In this document: one piece after another, positions 30,001 through 39,000 of the stretch
Position numbering within the stretch: position 1 is the first letter of the stretch
Layout: the number at the start of each line of letters is the position of its first letter
Assembly: GCA_963819815.1 (NCBI GenBank)
Contig: CAWFXL010000001.1
Span: 1,120,001-1,184,000 of the forward strand
DNA: 64,000 nt
Reading direction: 5' to 3'
Origin: an uncultured bacterium
GTDB lineage: Bacteria; Babelota; Babeliae; Babelales; Babelaceae
Position numbers: made by a program

Positions 30001-33000
30001 CTCAAGGTTAATCGTTCCAGCAGCGCGGTGAACTACCGTTCCTTTTACAGAAATAACATACTCAGAACGCAATTGATCGGCTAATGCATGAGCCGTTGCC
30101 GAATAATCCGGACTAAAAACGAGCTGCATAAGACCTGTACGATCACGCAGATCCACAAAAATAATAGTCCCGTGATCGCGCCGTTTGTTAACCCATCCTG
30201 AAAGTGAAATCGTTTTCCCTACAAGATCCCCGTGTACCTGGCCGCAGCCAACGGTACGTTCATAATAATTCATGGTTCTTAACTTTCTTATGCACCAAAC
30301 TCTCGATCAATAGATATTTCCGTTATCTATTCTAAACAAATTACCCAAAGCATGCAACTTTACTCTGAGCAGCAAATAACCCAGCAAGATGCGTACCTTG
30401 CTGGGTTATAGATATTCTTTTCTGAGTAGTAGCTAAGCAATAGCCTCTTCAAAACGGTGCTCAGCTCTTGCAATCAGCTGAGATACTAAACTCGGCGTCA
30501 GGCCTTCTGAAGTAGGAAGCGTTGCTTCAATTTTTAGGGTGCTCATAAATGAGGCAAGCTCAGAAGCAGAAGCTTTATCTAATCGTTTTGCTATGTTTTC
30601 AAGTGTCTGATCATCTAACATGCGCTGAACTGCTTGTTGTGTTTCTTCAGATATGTTAGGTGTCATAAAGTAAAGATCTCTATACGTTTTAAGAAGCCGT
30701 TTTCTTTCAGCAACTTTAGGTAATGACACTTCTATGATATCATCAATCATCAAAGCTGTATCCTGAGCAAGAACTGGCTTACCCGTCATACCAAAGATAA
30801 CTGAGAACCTAGAACTGCGCCCCTCAATATTTTCAATGAGAGCACTTTTAATCAAAGCATAGGGTGACGGAGTCCCGCCCGTTGCAAGCATAGGCGTAAA
30901 GAGCATCTGTGCATTATCAATATAGATAACTGCACCATTTGGAGACATTACTTCACGCTTGAAGAATTCCTCAATAGCGCGGCATGCATCAGCTTCCTTA
31001 AATTTCTGGAAAGAAGACCATGGTATCTCATAGTAATCCATACCTGCGAAATGTGCCATTTCTTGGGCAAACATACGCTTACCACATCCAGAAGGTCCCC
31101 AAAGAAGCGCTGTTCTAAATCGAGCATCTTCATTGCCACTAATAATTGATTGTTTCACCTTAAAATTCGTATGCAGGAAAAGATTGAATCTGATGCGGGT
31201 CGGTTCATCGACAACGATTTGTCTGGTAAGGGTACCCAACATTCCTTGAGAAGAAGCCTTTTTTATTATCACATCAAGTCGAGGCTTATTTATATGCTTT
31301 TCAAAATAGTTATTTAGAATTTTTGCGCCATACCAAAGACCAATAAGTCCAGCACCAACTCCTAAAACAGTAAATGCTATCGGCTTAAAGTTTTCATCCA
31401 TCCAGTTTTTTATTTGCTTACCCGTTGGATCAACCAAGTTTTCTTTCATACCCTCGCCTATCCCTGCAGCAGCTGCCTTGCCACCTGCTTTCCAAAGACC
31501 GTTCAATCCATCGTTTTCAGCTATAGAATTCGCATCAGTCCATAGCCTTCTTATACCTTTGCTCTCACGTATCTTCTCAAGAAGTTTTATCCCTAATGTA
31601 ACAGCTGCACCTGCAGTTACGTAGGGGACGGCTGCAGAAGGAACACAATAAAGAGATAGACTAGTCCCTGCACCAGCAGCAAGAGCTACCCCATTATTCA
31701 CAAGGTATTCCTGCCACCCAGATTTTTCTTTTTTATTTTCTTTTTGCTTAACTTCTTCTTTTTTATCTTCTGTTGGTACTACTGCGGCAGCATAAAGATT
31801 CGTCGAAGAAGCTCCCGCTCCGCCCAGTAAAAGAGCTAGAAATACATAGTTTGTATAGTGTTTCATTGCCATTAGTCCTACGTTATAGCGCTTCTTTTAT
31901 CTTATACTCGTACCAGTATAGCGTACCTAAGAAATTTTGCCACAGCCTCCAAGAGTATAGATTCTTTTAAAACCACCTCACCTTAGCATAGCAGAGCCTT
32001 CTTTGGAAAGAGTTTCATGAGGTAGATCGAATAATCTGCCTTCCCAACTTATCCTGAATATGGATATTGAGCTATTGTTCTTTGGCTGAAGACCATAGGC
32101 TAACACAACTCATTATGGTATGGAGGGCATACTGATCTAGCAAAGTTTCTATTACCCCGCTGCACCATTGCCTAATGCACCACCCAGCCCCAGCGCTACG
32201 TGTTGAGCAACGCCATGGAGTCCATTCCCGGCAGCTACATGATTCATATCATGGAATAATCTTCTCATACCAGCGGATGGCCGAAATGATGGACATAACA
32301 TGAATCCAGCAATTCCAATAGCTAAGGCAATGATAATAACTTTATTAGAAAATACCTGTGATGCTGCGAGAATCCCAGCACCAGCAGATTCTAATCGCCA
32401 TCTAGATAGAAATTCCGCAATTGACCTGGTAGACGGTAATGTTACTGCAGCAGCATGAAGGCTCTGACAAGAACCTGCTCCGCCCAGTAAAAGGGCAAGA
32501 AGTACATAGTTTGTATAGTGCTTCATATCATCCCCCAGTATAGAGACCTTTTTTCTTATACTAGTACCACTATAGCATTCCTATGAAAATTCGCCATAGG
32601 GGCCTCACGAGAGTACTAGATCTTTCGCATAGCAATGCCTACCTTAAGAAGAGTTGATTAGGACGAATGATTAAAACCTTGCTCAAACGCAGCATATTTT
32701 TGCATAGCAAAATCTACTGCAACGACAATAAGCTCAGGAGTGATAAGACCATCTTCACGAATAGAGGCATCTGATATAAGGCCATTGATAATACCTTCGA
32801 GCTCACCCCCTGAAAGTCCATCCGTCTTGTAGGCAAGATCCGAAAGGACCGTATCTGACAAGTTCTTTTGAACAGATTCAATGAATTCAGGGCTATTCTC
32901 ACTAGGATCGAGCATCAGTTTATCTCGATATAAGGCAAGGATACCTAAACGTTCACGCTCCGCAGGAAGGGGAATTTCTATAGAATCATCAATACGTCTT

Positions 33001-36000: not shown

Positions 36001-39000
36001 GAAAGTGAAGCGGAATTCCATGGCCATGCTCCCCAAAGGAGGTCCCGAACTCATTAACTGCAGCAGACGTTGTTGAAGCAATAGACTCAGGATCACCCCA
36101 AACCCCTTTGTTACGAATAGTCATCTTAGCATAGACAATGTCGTACGGCACCTTGGGCTGCCCATACCGAAATTGCGTAATGCAATCTACCGTATGACGA
36201 AAATAAATCACCCGATCAGTAGGATTATCGTTATTCAAAAGCCTCAGATTCTTCCCATAAAAGAACTCAGGGAGGCGTAGACGCACTTCAAACTTAAGTT
36301 CGCTATCACCTGGATGAAACACCATGCTTCCTTTTTTAGGAGGCCCAGACGTCTCATCCTTTTTTTCTACGGCTTCTAGTTCATTGGTTGTAGGATTTTG
36401 TGCTTCTTCACCTGTATTGGTCTTCGCCTCCTCATGAACTTCTTGCTTTGCTGGACTACCTGTTGAAGAAGTTTGCTGGACCTGTTGAATCTTCTGAACA
36501 GGAGTTTCATGACCTGCTGCAGCGCCTTTCTTTATTGAAGGTTTATAGCTATGAGAAGATATGCTATCTTGAGCTTTTACGTAAGCATTTGAGCAGATGA
36601 CCCCAAGCCCCATTACTACCTCCAGGCAAAGACGCCGATTCATAAAAACTCCTCTGTGCGAGAACAAGAAACAATGAACACCAACGCTTGCATTACCCGA
36701 AGCTTACAGAACACTCTGAAAATCCACTGAAAAATAGACTTTTTTAGTGTGACAATCTCTCTAAGTTTATGTTAATATTTACGCGAGATCAACTTGATTT
36801 CATGTCCTACTCACTTTCCTACAAGAAGTAAAAAGGGAAATATTTCCCCATACTCTAAACTTACCAAGCAGGCAAAAATATGACCCAAAAACATCCTATC
36901 ATTCTTGGAGCGCACATGTCCATCGCAGGAGGCATCGAAAATGCCTATTTGAGCGGCGCTTCAATAGACTGTACGGCAATTCAACTATTTACACATAGCA
37001 ATCGGCAATGGGCAATCAAAGAGCTATCGGCTGACACCATAGAAAAGGTACAAACAGCTCAACAACAGACAGGCATTACCCACGCGGTAGTGCATGCAAG
37101 TTATCTTATCAATGTTGCCTCTACCGATGCCGAAACCAGAAGAAAATCGAAAAATATGCTTCATATGGAGCTCAATCATTGCGCAGCCTTGGGCATTAAC
37201 TTCCTTGTGCTGCACCCAGGATCAAACCCTTCAATTGAAGAGGGAAGCAAGCTCATCAGCGAAGCAATCAATGAAACCTTTGAAAAGAACAGCTCAAAGG
37301 TCACCATTCTCCTTGAAAACATGGCTGGCCAAGGCAGTCAAATTGGCTACCGTCTTGAGCAGCTTGCTACACTCAGACAAGAGATCTCTGCAAAAAAACG
37401 CATTGGCTTCTGTATCGATACGTGCCATCTATGGGCAGCAGGGTATGACTTTTCAGACCATACAGGATATCAGAAGGTCTTAAAAGAGGTGGATACTATC
37501 CTTGGAATTGAGCATATACATGCGATTCATCTTAATGATTCTAAACAAAAGCTCAATTCACAAGTAGATCGTCATGCAAATATCGGAGCGGGAACCATTG
37601 GCCTTGAAGCATTCAGGCTTATTATGAATGATCCTACGCTTAAAAATATCCCAAAAATTCTCGAGACCCCTGGCAAAGAGCTTCACGAGTATGCACATAA
37701 CATGAAAATACTGTTGGATCTTGTAAAGAGCTGAATTTAATAAGAACGTGTAGTTAAAGACCCGTATAATAGCTAAGAAGGAATTGTAGTATATATTACG
37801 AGTCCTTAACTAACACTTTCTTACAAGCAGTGCCTCACCATATAGGAAGTCTAATAACTATTGAAGGGAGAGAAAGATAGTTATTAAAGCTACACTAACT
37901 AGGAAGCAATTCTAAGTTTCTACGAATTTTGCCTAAAAAACAACAGTTTATCTTTCGCAACATTATAAAACAACACAAAAACTGCTATTTCCAGGCGACT
38001 ATTTCCAAAATAACGTATTTTTATTGTAAAAGCAACCACAAAGCAACAAGATTTACCTCGTGCGCTTTCTCATCATTGAAACAATATACAACCAACATCT
38101 CCGCCAAAGTTTTCTACCTGAACGACTACAGGGTGTCTAGCTGTTTTTAACATCACTTGGGTATACCAGTTTTAGGGTTCCCCTATATCAAAAGAGGATG
38201 ATTGCTTGGCCTTAAGAAATCTCACCTGAAGGCATTTTTTCTAAGGCAACTTTGGAAATAGGATGGGATTATGGGGCGAGAAAGAGATGGTACTAAGATC
38301 GTGATAGTTAAAGACCCGCAAATAGCAGCTAAGAAGGAATTGTAGTATACATTACGAGTCCTTAACTAACACTTTCTTACAAGCAGTGCCTCACTATATA
38401 GAAAGTCTAATAACTATTGAAGGGAGAGAAAGATAGTTATTAAAGCTACACTAACTAGGAAGCAATTCTAAGTTTCTACGAATTTTGCCTAAAAAACAAC
38501 AGTTTAGTTCCTGCATCGTCAAGCAACAACATAAAAAGGTGGGTACCTACGAGCATTTTTGTCCTTTGGAGTATTTTTTTGCACAAAACAACCTCTTAAC
38601 AACGCTATGTTGCTGCAGAAAAAGCTCCATGATTCTTCTTAAGACAGAGAAACACGGATCAAAAGTTCCCCAACGATGCCTTGTTGTACATCTAGGATAT
38701 TAAGAAACACCTATTACATAAACAATCAAGATCCAGAAAAGTTGAAGGATGAGACTTCAAAATGAACAGCATCTGACAATTTCATCATAGCTTTCTATAA
38801 GAGCTTATGTGATTGCACAAGTCTGCCTGTTTTTCTATGCCTTTTTAATGAGGCCTTGTATCGTCCACAAGGTTGTACAGATCTTTCATGTAGAAAGATA
38901 TAGATTGTAAAAGGGCAATACCTCAATAGAAACGGGTCTAGAGATGCACAACATGTACATAAAAAAATTTCATCGGTTACACAAGCCGATATAAACAAGA

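Follow-up and report, generated by a model that had tools for sequence, protein, structure and literature searches.

The AAA+ proteins encoded by g01031 and g01029, together with their paralogs g01103 and g01323, appear to form a family of specific bacterial relatives of ATAD3, the mitochondrial inner-membrane AAA protein (ATAD3A/B; domains ATAD3_N, PF12037, and AAA, PF00004), and sequence comparison supports them as its sister family and closest known relative. The first two genes lie in the window, the 64,000-nucleotide stretch of DNA analysed here, from a bacterium of the amoeba-parasite type in the phylum Dependentiae by NCBI names. The four open reading frames that the initial annotation had reported are all intact and lie where it had put them. 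The family layout consists of an N-terminal hydrophobic segment, a variable exported helical part, a membrane helix, a juxtamembrane motif, the AAA module and C-terminal helices; at the sequence level, homology with ATAD3 was shown to begin about 10 residues ahead of the membrane helix and to reach the C-terminus, taking in juxtamembrane motif, AAA module and C-terminal helices. We hold it probable that these proteins are an inner-membrane-anchored, classic-clade AAA+ family, sister to ATAD3, with the origin and mechanism proposed below.

All features of the locus described here are on the minus strand. The ORF of g01031 (32658..34313) encodes a 551-aa protein of the active type with intact motifs. 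Its Kyte-Doolittle profile has two peaks, at residues 5-23 (2.02) and 225-243 (1.66). The first falls in the N-terminal hydrophobic segment, a signal peptide or first membrane helix (residues 1-24, 34242..34313), and the second marks the membrane helix (33585..33641), which aligns with the helix that ends PF12037 and with the one at the end of a profile built from the ATAD3 N-part. The exported part between them (residues 25-224, 33642..34241) is predicted to be all-helical from the alignment and the AF2 model, where its pLDDT is 30-49, and its conservation is limited to close orthologs. The helix is followed by the juxtamembrane motif RHIDRNLRTPALVLETSHK (residues 244-262, 33528..33584), whose counterpart in ATAD3 is RYIEAHLGKPSLVQETS, and by the AAA module (PF00004 at residues 319-449, E 1.2e-23 in the Pfam search; AF2 pLDDT 80-93). 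There we read a Walker A GPPGTGKT (residues 323-330, 33324..33347) and a Walker B ILFIDE (residues 381-386, 33156..33173), and the alignment rows place the pore-loop-1 region S-Q-Y-R-G, with its aromatic residue, at residues 353-357 (33243..33257); the sensor Asn and the Arg finger are also present.

Hydrophobic peaks were found by the same method at residues 10-28 and 165-183 of g01029, 4-22 and 96-114 of g01103 (numbered from Met67) and 7-25 and 189-207 of g01323, such that each of the four paralogs has, as had been proposed, a single membrane helix before the C-terminal AAA part, 60-80 residues ahead of Walker A; g01029 also carries a pair of semi-hydrophobic stretches at 62-98. Judged by hydropathy, the four are predicted to be N-out/C-in membrane-anchored classic AAA proteins. 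The signal peptide of the initial annotation holds for all four as an N-terminal hydrophobic segment, but its identity as a signal peptide is a reading of hydropathy, and the segment may instead stay uncleaved as a first membrane helix, the arrangement seen in FtsH. The exported part was put at about 150-200 aa, yet it reaches ~200 aa in g01031 only, with ~160 in g01323, ~135 in g01029 and ~70 in g01103. The extramembrane N-parts have no detectable homology to ATAD3_N or among the paralogs, and hhalign of the g01031 exported part against the pre-membrane N-part of ATAD3 returned a probability of 0.2%.

The second gene of the pair, g01029 (30433..31872), encodes a 479-aa paralog recognised by PF00004 (E 7e-8, Pfam search) in which the ATPase site is dead: Walker A reads GPSGCGKR (31075..31098), with Arg in place of Thr/Ser, and Walker B reads VIYIDN (30913..30930), with Asn in place of the catalytic Glu. 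A tandem second copy follows the g01031 ortholog in 6 other genomes, always as an intact ORF of 480-673 aa. Among the seven second-copy ORFs examined, six carry the GK[R/Q] change in Walker A and four have IDN or IDQ at Walker B, and a pattern search found a D-E Walker B in none. It had been suspected that g01029 is degenerate; this describes its ATPase motifs but not the gene, as the second copies are intact and recur in tandem, and on these sequences g01029 is best read as a conserved ATPase-dead partner and not as a decaying gene. Between the two genes, an ORF of 124 aa (32152..32526) is a partial duplicate of the g01029 N-terminus that has no AAA part (34% identity over 125 aa to the N-terminal 126 residues, BLASTP E 8e-9); it has no Pfam match and is retained in genome G027 at 85% identity.

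The kinship with ATAD3 is apparent from scores. In a protein database search, the top non-bacterial matches of g01031 were PF12037 proteins at 177-140 bits, with CDC48 at 142 bits or less, and BLASTP against the ATAD3 protein P0048 gave 39% identity over 307 aa (177 bits) in an alignment that begins right after the membrane helix. The four paralogs scored 185, 87, 159 and 174 bits to ATAD3 (the last being g01323) and at most 96 bits to any outgroup class; ATAD3 was the best class for all four, at about twice the scores of FtsH, PAN, CDC48 and Vps4-like domains, which bears out the earlier claim that it is their best non-bacterial relative. For P0042, which belongs to the f17-type (a subfamily named after genome family f17, where it is best represented), ATAD3 at 225-185 bits ranked above g01031-type bacterial proteins. 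Over ~300 aa the family and ATAD3 are 37-43% identical, the best mutual similarity of both, while comparison with solved AAA proteins in the PDB gave at best 113 bits for g01031 and 97 bits for ATAD3.

Both groups also have one membrane helix ~60-80 residues before Walker A, set between the block [FW]LxDxx[NK][LV] and the motif Y[IV]ExxLGxPxLVxE[ST]S, in which P253, L255 and S260 are invariant or near-invariant in the alignment. Against 22 outgroup domains, this juxtamembrane motif is confined to the family and ATAD3, and the residues F-x-W-A, the Gly before Walker B and DEA[DE]xFL are likewise absent from the outgroup. Neither group has a protease domain, and in both the N-part would face outward, with the AAA module on the cytoplasm or matrix side. 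A profile of the ATAD3 N-part matches the bacterial proteins only at its positions ~250-340, the membrane helix and linker (best E 5e-13; g01031 2.8e-3). The initial annotation stated that the bacterial proteins lack PF12037; this is true of g01031, which has no Pfam match to it, but not of P0177, which matches positions 184-265 of the 265 in Pfam ATAD3_N above the cut-off (40.6 versus 25 bits), and weak matches were seen in P0203, P0166 and P0217. The differences lie in the signal-peptide-like start of the bacterial proteins, which ATAD3 does not have, in their exported N-part, in the pore-loop residue (aromatic in bacteria, Leu or Met in ATAD3), in the presence of several paralogs per genome, one of them dead, and in an Ala-Ala tail at the C-terminus of 19 of 88 proteins.

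In three trees the family and ATAD3 formed one robust clade (support 100, 100, 100/100), within which ATAD3 was monophyletic (97, 100, 100/99); the third tree set this clade against FtsH, PAN, CDC48 and Vps4-like domains. Because of this clade support, the common membrane helix, the juxtamembrane motif and the family-only residues, the kinship is supported as specific, and the description of these proteins as ATAD3-type agrees with the clade, the shared motif and the distance of both groups from solved AAA proteins.

Of the 261 genomes searched from one phylum (Dependentiae/Babeliales by NCBI names), 119 have a family member at an E-value threshold of 1e-36, and these represent 14 of 21 family codes; occurrence is patchy (67/145 genera), and since 142/261 genomes gave no member at this threshold, the function is dispensable. 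Searches of two other phyla found a member in 0/124 and 0/401 genomes, so that among the three phyla sampled the family, which is multi-paralog, is so far confined to one. Atlas clusters labelled Chlamydiota, Bdellovibrionota and Melainabacteria were encountered, and this lead was followed up for one phylum, reached via a Bdellovibrionota-labelled MAG. The AAA regions of P0010, P0016 and P0032 are identical to those of loci of G032, G022 and G041, P0056 is the first AAA ORF of the G142 locus, and P0217 is 100% identical to G085; the names on these five or on their clusters are Dependentiae or Babeliales. Dependentiae are obligate associates of eukaryotic cells, and all known members, to our knowledge, depend on eukaryotic hosts.

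The origin would lie in one ancient gene transfer that linked the Dependentiae lineage with a stem or early eukaryote. Its direction had been called unsettled, and it may have run either way. As the family is, among the phyla searched, confined to a eukaryote-associated one, transfer from host to bacterium is at least as likely as the reverse, and we give nearly even chances to an early Dependentiae ancestor having acquired eukaryotic ATAD3, given it a signal peptide and novel exported domains in place of its N-part, and afterwards undergone repeated duplications that diverged fast. The ATAD3 matches found here span animals, one green alga, stramenopiles and alveolate-type transcriptomes, and ATAD3 has a wide distribution among eukaryotes; every bacterial paralog lies nearer to ATAD3 than to the other paralogs (for g01323, 174 bits against ATAD3 and 101 bits against g01031); branches are short in ATAD3 and long in the bacteria. 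A tree that unites all bacteria in a sister clade of ATAD3 was not rejected in three AU tests (p-AU 0.438, 0.549, 0.43) and had a higher likelihood than the free tree in one data set. However, in none of the three trees did bacteria fall inside sampled ATAD3, so that the transfer needs an unsampled or stem eukaryote as donor; this route also requires that the bacteria regained the aromatic residue of the pore loop; and ATAD3 is reportedly absent from Amoebozoa, the best-known hosts.

The initial annotation had instead taken the family as the prokaryotic stock from which ATAD3 was drawn, whereby a Dependentiae-like parasite or symbiont gave an envelope-spanning machine to an early eukaryote. 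We consider this possible, if rather doubtful. All three free ML trees reproduce the earlier topology, with ATAD3 inside bacterial diversity and beside the f17-type, to which P0042 belongs, but the support for nesting is weak (91, 80, 55/53). Bacteria were monophyletic in 0/200 bootstrap trees of one tree; however, the basal bacterial clades have stems of 0.7-1.0 next to an outgroup stem of 0.9-1.4, so that long-branch attraction can fake the nesting, which is not established by these sequences. The paralogs diverged deeply within the phylum and make up at least four clades over 14 of the 21 family codes, and the coiled-coil N-part of some members is read by Pfam as the last third of ATAD3_N, although the exported parts show no homology to its pre-membrane portion. 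The aromatic pore-loop-1 residue is kept in 46/55 bacterial rows and all 22 outgroup domains and occurs in 0/19 ATAD3 rows, for which reason the bacterial state looks ancestral; yet the character can reverse, since one base substitution turns Leu or Met into Phe. With no member outside one phylum among those searched, and given the host dependence of known Dependentiae, only with a special assumption can the donor be placed before the last eukaryotic common ancestor. The claim of a prokaryotic stock is not supported, and a bacterial origin of ATAD3 is offered here as a hypothesis; the smaller share of our expectation goes to a third, unsampled source. That these are ordinary membrane-bound AAA proteins, such as an FtsH minus its protease, resembling ATAD3 generically or by convergence, is very improbable: fold and motifs are generic, and Rpt, FtsH, Yme1, PAN and p97 are equally good Foldseek matches, but the bit scores about twice those to other classes, the homology reaching into a membrane helix and linker of a form that FtsH does not have, the clade support and an NCBIfam FtsH (TIGR01241) score of 66.5 bits against a cut-off of 600, with the M41 protease domain absent, already contradict it.

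Upstream of g01031 lies the gene of a putative AlgE-like outer-membrane beta-barrel of 728-736 aa (34457..36643), and a hairpin with a 13-bp stem and a weak T-run (34416..34449), a candidate from a consensus scan, separates its stop from g01031. The barrel protein has no sequence match in Pfam or the PDB; its AF2 model, of modest confidence (mean pLDDT 54), is rich in long strands and matches AlgE best in Foldseek (E 3e-12, TMt 0.62-0.64), followed by MOMP and Occ/OprD porins. Like the 18-stranded AlgE/OprD-type barrels it ends in an aromatic residue, as do 11 of 11 homologs examined, but it exceeds AlgE in length by ~300 residues, and its N-part of ~100 residues is disordered. The gene is present in 255/261 genomes of the phylum, including those where the AAA family was not found, and adjoins the AAA gene in some lineages only; it is a phylum-wide core protein, a neighbour of g01031 rather than a shown partner. 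The statement that each AAA gene follows a large secreted or outer-membrane-like protein is loosely true: the upstream proteins (736, 794 and 777, and 482 aa) are mutually unrelated save for the 794/777-aa pair, which has no clear signal peptide. That the family proteins span the envelope and contact the outer membrane is put forward as a hypothesis.

As for the mechanism, the AAA modules of g01031 and g01029 would lie in the cytoplasm, given the positive-inside residues after the helix and the orientation of ATAD3 in the mitochondrial inner membrane, and by analogy with classic AAA proteins they may assemble into a ring. Since its Walker motifs, sensor Asn, Arg finger and aromatic pore-loop residue are intact, g01031 could spend ATP on pulling or remodelling a polypeptide on the inner side of the membrane; the dead paralog g01029 would most likely join or regulate the ring. 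The family pore loop is noncanonical (aromatic-K/R-x-G instead of aromatic-hydrophobic-G), so substrate threading is not assured, and as we know of no agreed mechanism for ATAD3, working like ATAD3 predicts little. The hope for a tractable bacterial model is doubtful for an organism obliged to live inside cells, although its proteins could be produced in another host. FtsH is likewise an inner-membrane classic-clade motor with a cytoplasmic AAA ring, and it too exports the segment that links a hydrophobic N-terminal stretch to a second membrane helix, but it forms a separate clade in all three trees. In effect, g01031 would work like an FtsH without its protease, and since a genuine FtsH (744 bits) is encoded elsewhere in the genome, the ATAD3-like proteins would be extra motors, whose exported N-part, differing by subfamily, is probably an interchangeable adaptor for selecting the client in the periplasm or outer membrane.

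Judged by its sequence, the AAA pair of the window, g01031 and g01029, belongs with its kin to a bacterial sister family of ATAD3. Both genes lie on the minus strand, downstream of an ORF for an AlgE-like barrel (728 aa at 34457-36643, or 736 aa to 36667 from an upstream TTG) whose stop is followed by a hairpin on its 3' side. The order continues with g01031 (551 aa, 32658-34313), a 124-aa ORF (32152-32526), g01029 (479 aa, 30433-31872) and aspS (28498-30273), all on the same strand. A Pfam scan assigned the AAA domain PF00004 to g01031 (E 1.2e-23) and g01029 (E 7e-8) and gave no match for the 736-aa barrel ORF or the 124-aa ORF, while in NCBIfam the two AAA proteins had only sub-threshold matches, to models of PAN, CdvC, FtsH and CDC48, over the AAA part. 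Two paralogs, g01103 (C1:1238215-1239738) and g01323 (C1:1462546-1464174), are encoded elsewhere on the same contig of the source genome, an 88%-complete assembly of two contigs that total 1.64 Mb.

In a search of 5.8 billion proteins with g01031, bacterial and metagenomic proteins came first and were followed by proteins carrying PF12037, the ATAD3 N-terminal domain, at 177-140 bits, against at most 142 bits for CDC48 with its two domains summed; ATAD3 is thus the best non-bacterial match, as the initial annotation had proposed. We then compared the four paralogs with 125 local sequences (89 ATAD3 and 36 outgroups), and ATAD3 was again the best class for each of them: 185 bits versus 94 bits for the best outgroup class with g01031, 87 versus 49 with g01029, 159 versus 96 with g01103, and 174 versus 75 with g01323, such that the bit scores to ATAD3 are about twice those to other AAA classes. 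By BLASTP, g01031 is 39% identical over 307 aa to P0048, an ATAD3 labelled as coming from a spider, and the alignment begins directly behind the membrane helix (RHIDRNLRTPALVLETS versus RYIEAHLGKPSLVQETS). The best score to any solved AAA protein in a PDB sequence search was at most 113 bits for g01031 and at most 97 bits for ATAD3, and no ATAD3 chain was among the matches of either query. The eukaryotic AAA proteins other than ATAD3 (BCS1, Msp1, katanin and Rpt), sequences of which are present in the PDB, stood outside our trees and were covered indirectly, by these searches. An identity with FtsH does not hold: FtsH has an M41 protease and matches its full-length model, whereas the Pfam matches of g01031 and g01029 include no peptidase family, the FtsH model TIGR01241, whose cut-off is 600 bits, reaches 66.5 bits and covers the AAA part only, and a genuine FtsH (744 bits) is encoded elsewhere in the source genome.

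We asked how far the likeness extends towards the N-terminus beyond the AAA module. Twelve full-length ATAD3 sequences were used to make an N-part profile of 340 positions; searched against 88 bacterial proteins, it matched them only at its positions ~250-340, that is, at the membrane helix and linker, with E-values of 5e-13 and 1e-12 for the best matches (P0042 and L119), 2.8e-3 for g01031 and 0.57 for g01029. In P0048 the Pfam ATAD3_N domain covers residues 46-291, so that the Pfam model ends within the juxtamembrane motif. The full-length PF12037 model had no match at E <= 0.01 in g01031 or g01029, and some relatives matched just its last third; P0177, a bacterial-type protein with a signal-peptide-like start, passes the ATAD3_N cut-off (40.6 bits versus 25, profile positions 184-265 of 265), and P0203, P0166 and P0217 match below it. 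Ahead of the membrane helix, hhalign detected no homology between ATAD3 and the f17-type proteins, the bacterial subfamily best represented in genome family f17 (probability 1%), between ATAD3 and the g01031-type proteins (0.2%), or between the two bacterial types (0.2%). Like ATAD3, g01031 has a membrane helix and a conserved juxtamembrane linker before the AAA module, with P253, L255 and S260 conserved, and the linker pattern P..L....S, the motif F-x-W-A, a Gly before Walker B and DEA[DE]xFL are common to the bacteria and ATAD3 and absent from 22 outgroup domains. The pore loop, however, sets the two apart: the pore-loop-1 residue of ATAD3 is Leu, Met or Gln in 19/19 rows and aromatic in 0/19, whereas it is aromatic in 46 of the 55 bacterial rows and in 22/22 outgroup domains, and g01031 reads S-Q-Y-R-G where ATAD3 has its non-aromatic P-L/M-G.

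Three trees, all computed under LG+C20+F+G4 by PMSF, included 12-23 outgroup domains (FtsH, PAN, CDC48 D1/D2, CdvC/Vps4-like and two-module bacterial). Outgroup loci were taken from a scan of genome contigs with the family alignment A1, which picked up generic Walker A/B patterns and was of no use for the family's range, as it found only proteins of the FtsH, CDC48 and PAN sort from a wide range of phyla; 30 of them were typed with NCBIfam before reuse. Left out were fragments, near-duplicates (>58-62% identity among bacteria, >66-75% among ATAD3), P0092 with its two AAA modules, and P0172, which is probably a piece of a eukaryotic protein. The bacterial family and ATAD3 formed one clade, in agreement with the initial annotation, with support of 100 in quick tree 1 (73 rows x 215 columns), 100 in quick tree 2 (96 x 296) and 100/100 in the careful tree (52 x 295); in the same order, ATAD3 was monophyletic with 97, 100 and 100/99 and stood beside the f17-type proteins with 91, 80 and 55/53. 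A clade of P0074-like proteins and the clade of g01103 and g01323 were placed nearer the root on long stems (0.7-1.0).

The earlier proposal that ATAD3 is nested among the bacterial lines holds in the free trees, and the bacteria formed a single clade in 0 of 200 bootstrap trees of the careful analysis, a bootstrap that had not settled (correlation 0.955). However, approximately unbiased (AU) tests do not reject bacterial monophyly: holding all bacterial rows together changed the log-likelihood by -1.38 in a first test (p-AU 0.438), by +2.66 in a second, where the constrained tree was the better one (p-AU 0.549), and by -2.16 in a third (p-AU 0.43). As this constraint costs little or nothing, the sister relation of the two families is firm, but the nesting and the direction of transfer are not. 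It is possible, though less likely than not, that ATAD3 was neither a eukaryotic invention nor a legacy of the alphaproteobacterial ancestor of mitochondria, and that an intracellular bacterium resembling Dependentiae, whose motor was already anchored in the inner membrane and had a periplasmic coiled-coil arm, passed it to a stem eukaryote. If so, a core mitochondrial component would have been supplied by an ancient parasite.

Among the three phyla counted, the family is confined to that of the window, Dependentiae or Babeliales by NCBI names. With generic AAA proteins of other phyla scoring up to 117 bits with the A1 profile (E 7e-34), we counted matches at E <= 1e-36 and found the family in 119/261 genomes of this phylum, or 86/189 good-quality genomes, 67/145 genera and 14/21 family codes; it occurs in 34/35 genomes of f17, 11/12 of f18, 0/8 of f8 and 0/8 of f19. 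It was found in 0/124 genomes of the phylum reached via a Bdellovibrionota-labelled MAG and in 0/401 sampled Pseudomonadota genomes; Chlamydiota and Melainabacteria, at which the Atlas hinted, lie outside these counts. Every search protein that could be placed falls in the window's phylum; most clusters bear no taxon name, and the names that NCBI gives for these proteins, or for the clusters they belong to, read Candidatus Dependentiae or Babeliales. The AAA regions of P0010, P0016 and P0032 are identical to loci of genomes G032, G022 and G041, P0056 coincides with the first of the AAA ORFs at the G142 locus, and P0217 is 100% identical to G085, which places the subgroup of P0169 and P0217 in this phylum; P0169 itself had no match there at E <= 1e-70, a cut-off too strict to place the subgroup. 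P0056 and P0130 (G142:C3) bear the NCBI label 'Epsilonproteobacteria bacterium', whereas the genome collection assigns their MAG to the window's phylum and order and to family f17; the label is probably wrong.

In the hydropathy profile of each of the four paralogs, a hydrophobic segment at the N-terminus is joined by a single hydrophobic helix 60-80 residues ahead of Walker A. The two elements lie at residues 5-23 and 225-243 in g01031, 10-28 and 165-183 in g01029 (with two weaker stretches at 62-98), 4-22 and 96-114 in g01103 counted from Met67, and 7-25 and 189-207 in g01323. The exported part had been put at 150-200 aa in all four; an exported part is indeed predicted in each, but from these positions its length spans about 70 to about 200 residues. 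Walker A and Walker B are intact in g01031, g01103 and g01323. In g01031 they read GPPGTGKT and ILFIDE, as in an active classic AAA protein (PF00004), and N428, R439 and R440, corresponding to the sensor-1 Asn and the Arg finger, are invariant in alignment A3 of g01031-type proteins; g01103 and g01323 have the active-site motifs likewise. Foldseek with the AF2 model of g01031 returned the classic AAA fold and nothing further, and the exported domain was modelled at pLDDT 30-49, so that its fold cannot be named. An Ala-Ala C-terminus, often within a run (...TAAA, ...VAAA, ...AAAAA), is present in 19/88 family proteins, among them g01103, g01323, P0056, P0012, P0013, P0036, L093 and L106, and g01031 and g01029 are without it. 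Because the SsrA degradation tag also ends in Ala-Ala, such tails may, by analogy, mark family motors for turnover by ClpXP or FtsH.

In g01029 the corresponding motifs are altered to GPSGCGKR (Walker A) and VIYIDN (Walker B). Six other genomes (G027, G032, G034, G033, G029 and G013) likewise have a second AAA gene behind their g01031 ortholog. Among seven second-copy ORFs examined (480-673 aa), Walker A has GK[R/Q] in place of GK[T/S] in six, Walker B has IDN or IDQ in place of D-E in four, and a pattern search found a D-E Walker B in none. The suspicion that g01029 may be degenerate is therefore borne out for catalysis but not for decay, since second copies with altered motifs are kept intact in other genomes, and we regard g01029 as the conserved, putatively dead partner of g01031. 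The intervening 124-aa ORF is a partial copy of g01029 residues 1-126 (34% identity, E 8e-9) and is retained in G027 at 85% identity; with a signal-like segment and a Gly/Ala-rich hydrophobic part and no AAA module, it may encode an independent peptide, exported or in the membrane, or else be a remnant. Tandem arrays of 2-4 family genes are common (G013:C5, L128; G142:C3, L131; G244:C1, L130; G254:C1), and local duplication is thus frequent in the family.

The barrel encoded upstream of g01031 has no sequence match in Pfam or PDB. Its AF2 model has a mean pLDDT of 54, with strands, many of them long, at 70-85; the top Foldseek hit was AlgE (E 3e-12, TMt 0.62-0.64), MOMP and Occ/OprD porins came next, and the Atlas points in a similar direction. 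The C-terminal residue is aromatic in 11/11 homologs examined. The family, which looks undescribed, was found in 255/261 genomes of the phylum (188/189 of good quality), often in 2-4 copies. As modelled, the barrel is a predicted core outer-membrane protein, present also in genomes in which no AAA family member was detected, and probably a main porin or exporter of Dependentiae. Its gene adjoins one for a family member in ten genomes of f1 (G000, G027, G032, G033, G034, G029, G013, G022, G007 and G019) and, within f17, in three genomes that share a genus code (G138, G139 and G140), but lies at a distance or on another contig in G244, G242, G201, G237, G136 and G134. A complex prediction of barrel residues 96-728 with the exported residues 24-224 of g01031 returned 'no answer' (score 0.00) and counts neither way. 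We considered whether the AAA motor might use ATP to energise the barrel in place of TonB, in favour of which we counted the lack of any TonB_C in the 88%-complete source genome; the idea was dropped because the barrel is present in genomes without the AAA family and is not adjacent to the AAA genes in the six genomes named.

It had also been claimed that each AAA gene follows a large secreted or outer-membrane-like protein. This describes g01031 and its barrel, but the proteins upstream of g01103 and g01323 show no relation to it. Ahead of g01103 stand two tandem paralogs (L120, C1:1233392-1238196) whose products, of 794 and 777 aa, share 40% identity, match nothing in Pfam and lack a clear signal peptide; the gene behind g01103 encodes 795 aa and includes an esterase domain (PF00756). 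Upstream of g01323 is a gene for a 482-aa protein and downstream is BamA. An array of eight tandem paralogs of 162-205 aa with signal-peptide-like starts (MKKLMYVA..LA..QCYAE...; L121, C1:1456399-1460817) lies directly ahead of the 482-aa gene that precedes g01323, and the two members scanned had no Pfam match.

The membrane helix, linker and motor shared with ATAD3 and the pair of active and apparently dead genes are well documented in the sequences. We propose that the AAA module would form a cytoplasmic ring that pulls on a client by ATP hydrolysis via its aromatic, non-canonical pore loop, with the exported N-part acting as an exchangeable adaptor. Bridging of the envelope, by an inner-membrane protein whose N-part reaches the outer membrane, is possible.

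In animals, plants and many protists ATAD3 is an essential motor of the mitochondrial inner membrane; it is indispensable in animals and reportedly also in Arabidopsis and Plasmodium, and mutations in it occur in human neurological disease. To our knowledge it has neither a solved structure nor an agreed mechanism. A 2023 review by Waters et al. is said to place the origin of ATAD3 deep within eukaryotes and to report its absence in Fungi and Amoebozoa. Full-text searches turned up no paper that connects ATAD3 with bacteria, Dependentiae or Chlamydia, though the 2023 review may already discuss prokaryotic relatives. The papers found treat ATAD3 as eukaryote-only; in the parts available to us, a recent study in Plasmodium (PMC13249166, 2026) never mentions bacteria or prokaryotes and maintains that the ATAD3 domain is unlike every other AAA+ subclass. 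Several bacterial family proteins already carry the automatic JGI name 'ATAD3A/B', so the similarity is present in databases even though we found no paper discussing it.

A bacterial sister family would serve as the outgroup that sorts the ancestral features of ATAD3 (membrane helix, linker and motor) from eukaryotic additions; by that outgroup, most of ATAD3_N and the loss of the aromatic pore loop would be eukaryotic changes. The family supplies many diverse, smaller proteins that may be expressed for structural work and enzymology, together with a natural pair of active and putatively dead motors. In either direction, it would be a concrete example of ancient gene exchange between eukaryotes and a phylum of obligate parasites.
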